Origin: an uncultured Planctomycetaceae bacterium
GTDB lineage: Bacteria; Planctomycetota; Planctomycetia; Planctomycetales; Planctomycetaceae
Assembly (NCBI GenBank): GCA_963813715.1
Contig: CAWFAK010000008.1
Location: forward strand, 1 to 64,000
Length of the DNA stretch: 64,000 bases
Direction of reading: 5' to 3'
Shown: piece after piece, positions 45,078 through 48,376 of the stretch
Position numbering within the stretch: the stretch's first letter is position 1
How the letters are laid out: every line of letters begins with the position of its first letter
Translations under genes and position numbers: made by a program
The notes under the pieces: generated by a model
The model's database searches: none
What the model saw: only the letters and a program-made list of their open reading frames with translations
Told to the model about the DNA's origin: nothing

Positions 45078-46239
45078 TGGCTGAATGGAGAGAGCGGACT
45101 CTTTGCGCGCCGATGGCGGTGTAGCGGAATGGCCTAGGTGGAAACACGGGGGGTTGGGTCGCGAATTTATTCTCAGATAGGTGACCCACGAAATTCGTGA
45201 CCCGGCCCCCGATCGCAGGTCGGGTCGGGACGGGACACGAACGCGTTGGGACGGAATGGCGGGCGTACGCTGGGGGTGGATCCCCGCGGACGACAGAACG
45301 GTCCTTGCCGGTGGTGGGGATCCTTTTTACTAAGGGGGACGAAGGATCCCCAGCAAGCCGGGACGGGACCTCAAGGGTGGGACGGGATTGAATTGCGAGA
45401 ACTGGGCTCTACGGTGGATTCGTTGCGGTTCGAGTCACGCCGTCGAGCCAGGCGATCAAGTCTTGTGTCACTTCGTCGCGGTTGGTTTCGTTCAGCGTCT
45501 CGTGTCGCGCGTTGGGATAGAGCTTATAGGTGACATGTTGCAGGCTGGCCGCACGATAGGCGTTGAGCAACTGGTGGACGTTGCTGCCCACCGGGTCACG
45601 GCTGCCACGGAAGATGTAGATCGGCAGCGATTTGGGGATGCGAGTCTGCCGCGCCGGATCGGACATCTCGGCCAGGCCTCCGAGAATGTCGAGGAAGAGT
45701 TGCACTTGGGAGTCGAAGCCGCACAACGGATCCGCCACGTACTTGTCGACCTCGGCGGGATCGCGTGAGAGCCAGTCGAATGGTGTCCGCGCCGGCTCAA
45801 ACGGCTTGTTGAAGGCTCCAAAGAAGAGCGACTGCAGCAGCGGGCTCTTGCCGTGCGGACCGACTCGCAGCCGCTCGAGCTTCGCGATGTTTCGCCCCAA
45901 CCCCGCGGTCGCGGGCGGGCGGCCGTTCGTCCCGGAAAGCACCGCTGCGACGACCGCGTCGCCATGGTCGCCGAGAAATTGCTGGACCATGAACGATCCC
46001 AGCGAATGGCCAAAGATCACGACGGGCGTGTTTGGATGGTCCGCGCGAATCCGCTGGTTGAGCTGCCACAAGTCCTGGACACACCGATTCCATCCATCAT
46101 TCTCGGCGAAGTAGCCCAGGTCGGCAGGCGTCTTCGCTGTACGGCCGTGTCCCCGATGATCGTCGGCGTAGACGGCGTAACCAGCCCGGCACAGGGCCTC
46201 GGCCATCTATGAGAAGGGTAGCGTCAAGGGTTGGTTTTT

Positions 46240-46430
46240 GCGTTTGAAGTGGTGATCTGGGCGATGCGGTACGCTCAACCATCTATTCGGGATCACCAAC
46301 GGTCTGGAACAGGTCCGTCGATGTCGCCAGGAAGCCGACTTTCGAGAGACGCCCCATTCACCCTTCGAAGGTCGCTCTTTTGAGGGAACGCCTTCATGGC
46401 CGGGGGCGGGGTCGTCTGTGGGTCGTCGCA
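46240..46430 (-). ncRNA. Candidate bridge RNA/seekRNA of the IS1111-type element
   Basis: Stem-flanked motifs match the target (CGGCCA, GGGUG) and the circle junction (AUAGAUG, CUUCA), and each ends at the TG/CA core; boundaries approximate. Confidence 0.7.
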
Positions 46431-46480
46431 GCGCTTTCGATCGATGTTTTGTTTTGTGCTCTCCTGCCAAGGTCAGGGAT

Positions 46481-47500
46481 TTAAGTCGGTTGCTGGCTGA
46501 GCGAGTAGGGTTGGCCCGTCTTCAAGATCGCTGTCATCAGGCACAACAACCGGCGGGCCACGGCGACGATCGCCTTCTTGGCACGCACGCGCAACTTCAA
46601 TCGTTCATAAATCCGACGCCAACGTAACGAGTGCTGAACCAGCCGCCAGGCGGCTTCGACCAGCGTCGAGCGCAGCAGCGTCGAACCGTTCTTCTCCAGG
46701 TGCAGCTCCCGACTCTTGCCCGCACTCTCGCGTTGACCCGGTGAGAGCCCTGCGTAAGCGACGACCCGCTTTTGCGAACCGAAGCGATCAATGTCTGCCA
46801 GCTCGGCCAGCACAACTTCGGTGGTCACGAAGCCCATTCCGGGGATCGTCCGCAACAGCGTCCGCGCTTCCTGCTCGCAAAGCGGCGCCGCCTCGGCGAA
46901 CTCCTTCAGCCGGGCGTTGACGGCCAGCAGCTGACGCCGCCCGAAGTGCAACTCTTCGACCATCTGATCCACGGCGAACCGATCCGCTCCCAAGAGAGGC
47001 ACTTGGGCGAGATACGCCAACCCGTCCACGGTGAACAGACTGGGACGATCCGCGTTGTAGTCGCAGAGAATGCGGGGCAGACGGTTCTTGACGGAGGTCA
47101 ATCGCCGTTGAATGCCCCCTCGATGGCGCACTAATCGCCGATGCTCCTGCTGCCGCGGAGTCGCGCGATAAGAGGTCGGAATCATGTCCAAGGCCAGGAA
47201 CTCCGCGAGGATTTGCACGTCGAGCCGATCGCTTTTACGCGTGCTCTCGGCAATCACACGCAGCTTCTTGGGGTGAGCCAACAACACGCGATGGGCCACG
47301 GGCTCGATCAATCGCACGAACCATTCGTAGCTGGCGGTCGCTTCCACGACAGCCTCGAACTCCCCGAGCCTCTCGAAAAATGCGAGGATGCTCCGCTCTT
47401 CGCCACAACGCACGGTCCGACGCTCCAAAACCCGCCGCAATTGGTCGACGACGCAAATCGTGATAGTCTGCTTGTGTAGGTCGCAGCCGGCAAATTTCAT
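46481..47500 (-). CDS. IS110 family DEDD recombinase/transposase (intact, 339 aa)
   Basis: FAGCDLHK, VVEATA, KSDRLD, TIPGMG, AYAGLSPGQRESAG, KKAIVAVARRL. Confidence 0.96.
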   Translation of the reverse strand: MKFAGCDLHKQTITICVVDQLRRVLERRTVRCGEERSILAFFERLGEFEAVVEATASYEWFVRLIEPVAHRVLLAHPKKLRVIAESTRKSDRLDVQILAEFLALDMIPTSYRATPRQQEHRRLVRHRGGIQRRLTSVKNRLPRILCDYNADRPSLFTVDGLAYLAQVPLLGADRFAVDQMVEELHFGRRQLLAVNARLKEFAEAAPLCEQEARTLLRTIPGMGFVTTEVVLAELADIDRFGSQKRVVAYAGLSPGQRESAGKSRELHLEKNGSTLLRSTLVEAAWRLVQHSLRWRRIYERLKLRVRAKKAIVAVARRLLCLMTAILKTGQPYSLSQQPT

Positions 47501-47830
47501 GGCGGTGTCCTTTTGCGGAAACGGTTTTGCAACAAACTCCGTTTACCACGTTCAAGCACAACCACCAACCGGCTCGGCCTACCTCTTACCGCTCCTCATA
47601 GCTTCACCCGGGCATAGCGGCCGGCATGCTCGGCCCAACCGTGTGCGATCTGCACCACGGCCTTCGTCGGCTGCTCGGGCAGCCAGCGATAAACGAAGAG
47701 GGAAACACCATCGGGCGTTTCAAGTTGAAATGTCGAAGCCTGCATGAAATCACCGCTGACTGTCACCGAGGTCAGTTTGTAGTCTTGTAGGCCAGGCTGT
47801 GCCTGCCGTCCGCGTGCACGCGTCTTCGGG

Positions 47831-48376
47831 TCACTTCTTCGGCCGAAACGCCACCAGTTTCGATTCGTTGGTGGTCAGGTACGGGCCGTTTAGGAGGTCG
47901 ATGCAATACGGGATCGCCGGGAAAACCGCGTCCAGGCACTCGGCGATGGCGCCGGGTTGGCCGGGGAGGTTGAGGATCAGCGTGCCGCCGCGGATGCCGG
48001 CCGTTTGACGGGAGAGGATCGCAGTGGGGACTTTTTCGAGCGAGACTTTGCGCATCAACTCGCCGAAGCCGGGCATCATTTTCGAGCAGACGGCCTCCGT
48101 CGCCTCGGGGGTGACGTCGCGGAGGGCCGGGCCGGTGCCGCCGGTGGTGACGACCAGGCAGCAACCCTCGGAGTCGCAAAGTTGTCTGAGGGTCGCCTTG
48201 ATCCTCGGCCGCTCGTCGGGGATCACCCGCACGATGGCGGTCCAAGGCGAGGTCAGAATGCCCTTGAGATACTCGCGGATGGCCGGGCCGCCGCGATCCT
48301 CATACTCGCCGCTGCTGGCACGGTCGGAGACGGTCACCACGCCGATTTTTGCGGGCTCTTCGGGAGAATCTGCCAT
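47831..48376 (-). CDS. mog: Molybdopterin adenylyltransferase
   Basis: IGVVTVSDRASSGEYEDRGGP, TTGGTGPALRDVTPEAT, VPTAILSRQTAGIRG, NLPGQP. Confidence 0.96.
   Translation of the reverse strand: MADSPEEPAKIGVVTVSDRASSGEYEDRGGPAIREYLKGILTSPWTAIVRVIPDERPRIKATLRQLCDSEGCCLVVTTGGTGPALRDVTPEATEAVCSKMMPGFGELMRKVSLEKVPTAILSRQTAGIRGGTLILNLPGQPGAIAECLDAVFPAIPYCIDLLNGPYLTTNESKLVAFRPKK

Follow-up and report, generated by a model that had tools for sequence, protein, structure and literature searches.

Guide RNAs of insertion sequences of the IS1111 group have been described both as seekRNAs and as bridge RNAs. The seekRNAs occur in short forms of 82-96 nucleotides (nt) and long forms of 148-172 nt (PMC11187229; PMC13604230 Table 1), and in all IS1111 seekRNAs that Siddiquee et al. 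2024 assayed, the complement of the top strand lies 5′ of the match to the bottom strand, the IS110 order being the reverse (PMC11187229). The bridge RNAs of IS1111 elements were placed in the right end, with the donor nucleotides often situated in a multiloop (Durrant et al. 2024, PMC11208160). We analysed an element of this kind in a stretch of 64,000 nt from an uncultured Planctomycetaceae bacterium (contig CAWFAK010000008.1 of assembly GCA_963813715.1, positions 1 to 64,000), referred to below as the window. The element lies on the minus strand at 46204..47606. It is very probably an IS1111-group member of the IS110 family with an RNA-guided DEDD/Ser recombinase, a grade that we give jointly to the whole of the preferred explanation, namely an IS1111-type element, a two-module guide RNA and the mechanism set out below.

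ISEc11, ISPa11, ISKpn4 and ISPst6 (PMC11187229) are similar to the window element in that they have a DEDD transposase, subterminal repeats, a longer non-coding region downstream of the gene and no target duplication; the ISEc11 transposase, with 339 amino acids (aa), even has the same length as the window recombinase. In IS1111 seekRNA elements such as ISEc11, as in the window element, the top-strand complement comes first and the guides overlap at the insertion point, and the guide order in the target loop of the window element agrees with the published IS1111 order (PMC11187229). In size, the window target loop (~71-80 nt) can be compared with the short seekRNAs and the two modules together (~152 nt) with the long ones. 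On the other hand, the window element belongs to another host phylum and its target, GGG-TG-GCCGGGG, lies in a palindrome resembling the repetitive extragenic palindromes (REPs). A module reading the donor is proposed for the window element, while the role of the long form was left open for the ISEc11-type RNAs (PMC11187229). The features of the window element are here read from its sequence.

IS621 belongs to the IS110 group and has its RNA upstream in the left end, a reversed guide order, very short subterminal repeats and the core CT. It resembles the window element, for which a donor-reading module is proposed, in having a single RNA whose target and donor loops each pair with both strands around a 2-nt core, as well as in its DEDD and Ser recombinase and its insertion into REP-like sequences (PMC11208160, PMC11208158). 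Elements of the IS110 family that target REPs have been noted (Tobes and Pareja 2006, cited in PMC11208160). Among them, ISPpu9 and ISPpu10 (PMC12288879) are, like the window element, multi-copy elements inserted at a fixed point of repetitive extragenic palindromes, and ISPpu9 also carries a small-RNA gene downstream of its transposase gene. ISPpu9 has additional solo copies of this gene; in the window genome, a covariance model of the target loop matched only the eight element copies and no solo RNA copy.

The ends of the window element and its recombinase gene were located as follows.

46204..47606, minus strand: the whole element, 1403 bases when the TG core is counted at either end, 1401 when it is counted once.
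47605..47606, minus strand: core TG at the left junction, found at both junctions of 8/8 copies; it leaves 2 ambiguous letters at the joint of the empty site.
47595..47601, minus strand: CTATGAG, the left subterminal inverted repeat, separated from the core by 3 nt; it is the reverse complement of right-end CTCATAG and is kept in relatives.
46204..46213, minus strand: CTCATAG, the right subterminal inverted repeat, followed by A and the core TG; the repeat itself is 46213-46207, 1 nt inside the core.
46481..47500, minus strand: recombinase gene, 339 aa and stop, identified by Pfam, NCBIfam and PDB sequence matches.

On the minus strand the element opens with TG-AAG-CTATGAG and closes with CTCATAG-A-TG. 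The genome carries eight copies, 97-100% identical over the full length, whose flanks part ways exactly outside TG...TG, the TG being the only shared sequence. Insertion is site-specific, in one orientation and without target duplication, with 8/8 copies at GGG-TG-GC(C/T)G; that other copies should stand at related sites had been set beforehand as a test. When the region was compared with contigs of four public runs, those of two runs (X1 and X14) connected 46203 to 47605 and omitted 1401 bases. These contigs confirm the element ends and the TG core, and they represent the empty hydrolase site in related populations. Two traits of the IS1111 group are present: subterminal repeats of 7 base pairs (bp), where 7-17 bp are typical of the group, with short terminal extensions, and a longer non-coding region downstream (277 nt 3′ of the recombinase gene vs 106 nt 5′ of it).

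The recombinase contains the Pfam domains DEDD_Tnp_IS110 (PF01548, E 1.9e-12) and Transposase_20 (PF02371, E 6.3e-23), and scored 210 bits, vs a cut-off of 140, over residues 3-331 in the NCBIfam family NF033542, 'IS110 family RNA-guided transposase'. A PDB sequence search matched the ISCro4 and IS621 transposases (8wt6, E 5.7e-13), where only the C-terminal domain, residues 190-336, aligns confidently. The length of 339 aa falls within the 330-350 aa of the IS1111 group, while the PDB relatives compared belong to the IS110 group. In an alignment with 16 relatives, D7, E53, D91, D94, G251, P254 and S259 were invariant, and the Ser motif G--P----S reads GLSPGQRESAG, with S-A where S-G is usual. 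Following the literature, D7, E53, D91, D94 and S259 are the predicted catalytic residues.

Relatives of the element were collected by a protein search that covered 398 genomes from the same order, with matches in 50 (the window genome counted) at 46-98% identity, and by a pattern scan of species-representative genomes, which added 80 loci, mostly in metagenome-assembled genomes of Planctomycetota. All readable non-coding ends of these relatives display one common layout. Its first module, a target loop, comprises the following features in the window.

46408..46417, minus strand: 5′ arm of the outer stem, AGACG(A)CCCC, pairing with 46355-46347; 99-100% of cells paired, with compensatory changes at 7/9 pairs.
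46347..46355, minus strand: 3′ arm of the outer stem, GGGGCGUCU, with covariation in relatives.
46397..46406, minus strand: right target guide CCCCCGGCCA, complementary to core and right flank on the top strand; unpaired in the consensus fold.
46367..46395, minus strand: inner hairpin GAAGGCG ... CG(A)CCUUC, 97% of cells paired and 3 compensatory pairs in 10 relatives.
46359..46363, minus strand: left target guide GGGUG, a same-sense match to left flank and core; GGGTG stands left of 8/8 copies.

The right target guide contains a 9-nt complement (CCCCGGCCA) of the majority right flank of the copies including the core, TGGCCGGGG, that is, TG+GCCGGGG. We then asked how guides and flanks vary together in the relatives. 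Among 49 distinct right guides, 345/441 cells agreed with the element's own right flank vs a permutation mean of 195.6, a value reached in 0/5000 permutations. For 18 elements, the complementary run averaged 6.3 against the own flank vs 3.5 against the flanks of others (0/20000). Pairs of right guide and right flank in relatives include CCCCCAGCCA with TGGCTGGGG, ACCGGGGCC with GGCCCCGGT, AUCGGGCUUA with TAAGCCCGAT, UGGCGUGCCA with TGGCACGCC, and GCUCAAAGCC with GGCTTTGAG. On the left side, the identical suffix shared by guide and flank had a mean of 5.67 vs 3.0 when permuted (0/5000; 30 distinct guides with 14 different 5-mers). Here the guides CCCCAUG, UAAAUUG, UUACCCUG, GCUAUAGUG and UAGGCCG accompany the flanks CCCCATG, TAAATTG, TTACCCTG, GCTATAGTG and TAGGCCG, respectively. 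Many different sequences carry this signal, the kinship of the relatives notwithstanding. As judged from these comparisons, both sides of the target loop are guides that change in step with the flanks, a natural form of reprogramming.

The RNA structure was examined in the same relatives. A first alignment of 19 non-coding ends (MAFFT and alifold) recovered the outer stem only, with 9 pairs, 6 of them compensatory, because the hairpins vary in length; it was superseded by a 10-sequence alignment and by a covariance model of the first module. On the 10 relatives, alifold returned the outer stem, the inner hairpin, a further hairpin UGG(C)GAC...G(A)UCCCG and a small GCG/CGC hairpin, and left all four guide segments, those for the donor included, unpaired. 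In this alignment 96.9% of cells were paired, with 11 compensatory pairs; 0/500 shuffles did as well and no slide came close. Across 84 loci the covariance model matched 82 times, each time downstream of the gene and on its strand. In 62 distinct rows of the target loop, 93.5% of cells were paired and 14/16 pairs compensatory (0/500 shuffles), in an alignment that was fitted to the model, which favours structure; all 7/7 pairs of the inner hairpin were compensatory in this set. G-U pairs were restricted to the sense strand. Within the window genome, only 5 columns from 46417 to the right end vary across the 8 copies, all in an apical loop or spacer and none in a guide or stem.

Much of this had been anticipated. 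The original prediction for this DNA described an intact planctomycete IS1111-type IS110 element with a TG core, and the domains, the repeats, the eight copies, the empty-site contigs and the mostly planctomycete relatives bear it out. Its minus-strand motifs CGGCCA (46402-46397), GGGUG (46363-46359), AUAGAUG (46286-46280) and CUUCA (46249-46245) are all found at these positions, as are the stems that it named, an outer GACGACCCC/GGGGCGUC, an inner GAAGG/CCUUC and GGUGAUC/GAUCACC. CGGCCA and GGGUG, proposed as target guides, match beyond chance and covary with the flanks of homologous elements (0/5000 permutations each side), the right guide being 9 nt rather than 6, and compensatory changes across relatives uphold both the outer and the inner stem. 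Three of the conditions under which the prediction would have fallen did not arise: the other copies stand at related sites, the guides are left unpaired by the consensus fold, and they covary with the flanks.

Downstream of the target loop lies the second module, whose features are given below.

46331..46335, minus strand: proposed right donor guide GCUUC, pairing with left-end G2-C6 (47605-47601) and covarying with the left end.
46288..46329, minus strand: hairpin of the donor loop, in which UGG(C)GAC and G(A)UCCCG enclose a variable stem; 100% of cells are paired across 10 relatives, and the upper stem has 4 compensatory pairs.
46280..46286, minus strand: left donor guide AUAGAUG, identical to the final 7 letters of the right end, core included, and found in nearly all relatives.

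The segment 5′ of the donor hairpin reads GGCUUCC in the window (46336-46330). Against left-end positions 4-6 this segment gave Watson-Crick pairs in 43/54 cells (0/20000), and in a wider set, over left-end positions 1-7, 231/357 vs 205.9 (0/5000). Examples of segment and left end are GCUUCA-TGAAGC, UGUCA-TGACA, UUUCA-TGAAA and GGUUCC-GAACC. On the other side of the hairpin, two relatives with a CG core (L028 and L029) carry the left donor guide AUAGACG where the right end reads CATAGACG; the same two have the left target guide GGCCG and CG at both junctions, corresponding to a change of core T to C. That AUAGAUG is a left donor guide, as the original prediction had it, agrees with its conservation, its identity to the right-end letters and its variant in these relatives. 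The two modules appear to be built alike and in the same order, right guide, hairpin, left guide. Unlike in IS621, the donor guides flank a hairpin without a supported closing stem, an arrangement that fits the remark on IS1111 multiloops in PMC11208160.

The donor loop had originally been drawn in another way, with AUAGAUG inside the GGUGAUC/GAUCACC stem, CUUCA as the right donor guide and the donor and target guides in opposite orders. The window element does possess CUUCA and the two arms of this stem, the GGUGAUCC...GAUCACC helix forms when the whole end is folded as a single sequence, and CUUCA pairs with left-end T1-G5 including the core T, where GCUUC stops short of it. The relatives nevertheless make this drawing very improbable. 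In them, neither the GGUGAUC/GAUCACC stem nor CUUCA at 46249-46245 exceeds chance or is conserved. Its stem was paired in 44.9% of cells in 10 relatives, 50/500 shuffles were as high and a one-column slide did no worse, in what is a soft test given the poor alignment of the tail. The stem also competes with the conserved hairpin UGGCGAC...GAUCCCG, 100% paired in relatives, whose 3′ strand serves as the 5′ arm of the stem. An equivalent of the CUUCA 5-mer occurs in the tails of 3/19 relatives, in other places, whereas the GCUUC segment covaries with the left end. With the right donor guide moved to GCUUC (46335-46331), the apparent opposite order disappears. Of the claim that the 3′ end encodes guides for both target and donor, the target pair and AUAGAUG were retained and CUUCA was given up. 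A different explanation is that only the target loop is a guide RNA, in the manner of a short seekRNA, that the protein recognises the ends via the subterminal repeats, and that the AUAGAUG block and the segment preceding it serve RNA processing or protein binding or form a site at the DNA level. A short RNA of 82 nt was sufficient for ISEc11, with no role fixed for the long form in the section cited (PMC11187229), the donor ends and AUAGAUG hardly vary and their covariation is thin, and the donor region folded alone was not better than shuffles (z -0.44). We still consider this explanation unlikely, taking into account that the segment 5′ of the hairpin tracks the left-end variants (0/5000), that AUAGACG accompanies CATAGACG, that the donor layout repeats the layout of the target loop, and that donor-complementary nucleotides have been described in IS1111 RNAs (PMC11208160).

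It could further be supposed that there is no RNA at all, and that the features act at the DNA level, as protein sites or as single-stranded DNA hairpins like those of IS200/IS605, or reflect a shared ancestry of flanks and element. The support obtained here is comparative, with no RNA seen directly and no matching Rfam family, and a single-stranded DNA version of the same structure would be compatible with the sequence. This is hardly credible, as the stems are kept by compensatory changes with G-U pairs on the sense strand only, one guide complements the flank and the other has the same sense, as in RNAs of the family shown experimentally (PMC11187229, PMC11208160), and the protein belongs to an NCBI family named 'RNA-guided transposase'. 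The Rfam search itself gave nothing relevant at E <=10 in the window or in five relatives; matches elsewhere were an irrelevant miRNA-like hairpin, a tRNA and a group II intron fragment.

The two-module reading that we prefer has to be set against a number of observations that weigh against it, the donor region's lack of folding signal among them. The relatives are not independent, and the permutation results overstate significance; they are counts, not probabilities. Seven of the 49 right target guides (L027, L021, L015, L095, L090 and others) agree with their flank at only 3-5 of 9 positions, some of these copies being visibly decayed. The whole 277-nt 3′ end folded alone was not better than shuffles (z -0.68), and relatives were used instead for this reason; of the proposal that the 3′ end could be tested by folding, the whole end gave no signal and the target loop alone did (z -2.99). 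In the donor module, GCUUC forms only 5 bp in the window element with the core T mismatched, and the covariation of the left donor guide comes from one lineage only (L028/L029). Left ends show little diversity, TGAAACT occurring in 33/51, and the evidence for the right donor guide is weaker for this reason; donor-side covariation as a whole is weaker than the target-side evidence. A donor-module closing helix, CUCGA/UUGAG, appears in the single-sequence fold of the window element, and a bulged variant on the 10-relative alignment had 86% of cells paired with no compensatory change. As for mobility, the recombinase gene is intact in 4/8 copies, the window copy included, and broken in the other 4/8, with a common frameshift in 3 copies and further damage in 1. 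The contigs of the 4 public runs contained no circle junction, which contigs cannot exclude. The RNA and present mobility are predicted from sequence comparison, all runs compared being contigs. The depth of RNA libraries was also considered as a sign of transcription; the element stands at ~8x its flanks (X14: 57.8 vs 7.5), which equals copy number and is no evidence of transcription. We regard it as a serious possibility, a little short of evenly balanced, that in this planctomycete clade the long-form IS1111 RNA is a true two-module bridge RNA, with a donor module that lacks a closing stem and a second core base that need not match between donor and target.

In the two-module reading, the family mechanism suggests that the element would be excised as a circle whose junction links the right end to the left end through TG (...CTCATAGA-TG-AAGCTATGAG...). 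Transcription, probably from a promoter at this junction, would continue across the recombinase gene into the 3′ end and yield an RNA of ~150 nt, from 46417 to ~46266. Module 1, closed by 46417-46408/46355-46347, would read the target: on TG+GCCGGGG the top strand would be paired by CCCCCGGCCA, and on GGG+TG the bottom strand by GGGUG. Module 2 would read the donor junction, with GCUUC pairing to the left-end top strand (G-AAGC) and AUAGAUG to the bottom strand of right end plus core. The RNA would load on the recombinase and strands would be exchanged at TG, giving insertion in one orientation without target duplication. A candidate for the junction promoter was found near the right end.

46222..46227, minus strand: TTGACG, candidate -35; TTGAC[ACG] lies 18 nt from the right end in 19/19 order-level relatives read by eye.

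This hexamer is probably the -35 of a promoter that is completed on joining of the ends. At a spacing of 17 nt, the -10 would be GAAGCT, or GAAACT in most relatives, a weak match. A scan for sigma-70-like promoters within the linear element gave 0 sites.

The natural target of the element is the 5′ shoulder of a REP-like palindrome. GGG-TG is found on the left side of 8/8 copies and TG-GCCG on the right side of 7/8, the exception, L005, having GCTG; the same palindrome forms the right flank of 6/8 copies. The palindrome family reads cGGGTG-GC[CG]GGGGCGCTCCGC-N-GCGGAAGCCCC[CG]G (for example, the flanks of L002-L007) and has 38 genome copies in a fuzzy search with <=2 mismatches per arm. Of these, 15/38 are empty with GGGTG before them and 4 lie directly after an element end; a fifth also adjoins an element end, with a one-base offset. 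The window copy is exceptional in lying within a gene for an alpha/beta hydrolase, at the site GGG-TG-GCCGAGG, which is one mismatch from the consensus GCCGGGG; the wild-type target sequence is GGGTGGCCGGGG, from which the hydrolase-type site differs by a single A.

45409..46203, minus strand: downstream part of the interrupted alpha/beta hydrolase gene, matching Pfam Hydrolase_4 at profile positions 24-239 of 239.
47607..47745, minus strand: upstream part of the interrupted hydrolase gene, 47 codons with the shared TG counted.

The two parts rejoin in frame, upstream ...YARV to downstream AEAL..., across the 1401-base skip, and the clean hydrolase split of the original prediction is borne out in this way, Hydrolase_4 starting at profile position 24. 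Judged by sequence, the site of the window copy is near-cognate, with a single C-A mismatch, and the hydrolase gene is inactivated.

Several further features of the copies and relatives were noted. In L003, L004, L005 and L007 the recombinase genes are frameshifted (237, 237, 197 and 237 aa) with RNA region and ends intact, and these copies could be mobilisable in trans. The window copy has a dense cluster of private substitutions at 47117-47174 relative to the other 7 copies, where the public-run contigs show the letters of the other copies; the patch looks like conversion or recombination from a diverged relative. Words of the stretch 45900-47900 occur at shares of 0.47-0.61 in 20/24 listed public runs, which come from 17 studies of soil and rhizosphere metagenomes and include 6 RNA libraries; in soils, the element or the lineage that hosts it appears to be widespread.

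In the RNA region, many relatives contain an extra conserved module of ~200 nt (CTCGGGCTCAG...GACCGACGCCGACGGCGAGGGGAA) that is absent from the window element. It lies between donor loop and right end in L022-L024, L026, L059-L068, L103, L105 and L112, and partly upstream of the target loop in L026, L086 and L091. L026 also has a long perfect hairpin, absent from the window element; Rfam gave only miRNA-like noise on the extra module and this hairpin. Just 5′ of the target loop, at 46418-46429 of the window, part of the stem arm is repeated (GCGACGACCCACA), and Phycisphaerae and Pirellulales relatives (L061, L065, L068, L112) have a conserved GGTGGACGTGACGAC-TTGAG block at the same place; this may mark a site of processing or form an additional helix. 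The target-loop region is tandemly duplicated in L126, and L127 has two covariance-model matches 1.8 kb apart.

Core variants were found in three Gimesia genomes (G102, G103 and G087; elements L016, L017 and L018), where GGG-TG stands at the left junction and CATAGA-TA at the right one. In these elements the right target guide ends in UUA or CUA, pairing with TA, and empty sites of the form GGGT[AG][AG]GCCCGAAT number 12-30 per genome vs 0 for a control. A donor core TG and a target core TA seem compatible, the left junction keeping the donor core and the right junction the target core. If such a core mismatch is tolerated, both effective exchange points, or the surviving strand, would lie on the 5′ side of the core.

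RNA-guided IS110/IS1111 recombinases are under development as genome-insertion tools, and the IS1111-type RNAs are far less characterised than that of IS621, the role of their long form being called open (PMC11187229). What is new here is one member and a rich family of the RNA-guided kind described in 2024, and no new principle. For the genome, the element accounts for the disrupted hydrolase gene and identifies the REP-like repeat family as its landing site. The family provides a large Planctomycetota data set, with dozens of relatives that share one scaffold and differ in their guides. Within it the left guide is mostly fixed and the right guide varies freely; tolerated mismatches occur, and a donor-reading module has comparative support. 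If the two-module reading is true, this clade would settle the role of the long seekRNA, and it would offer a natural series of ~50 reprogrammed guides in which G-T and C-A mismatches are tolerated.

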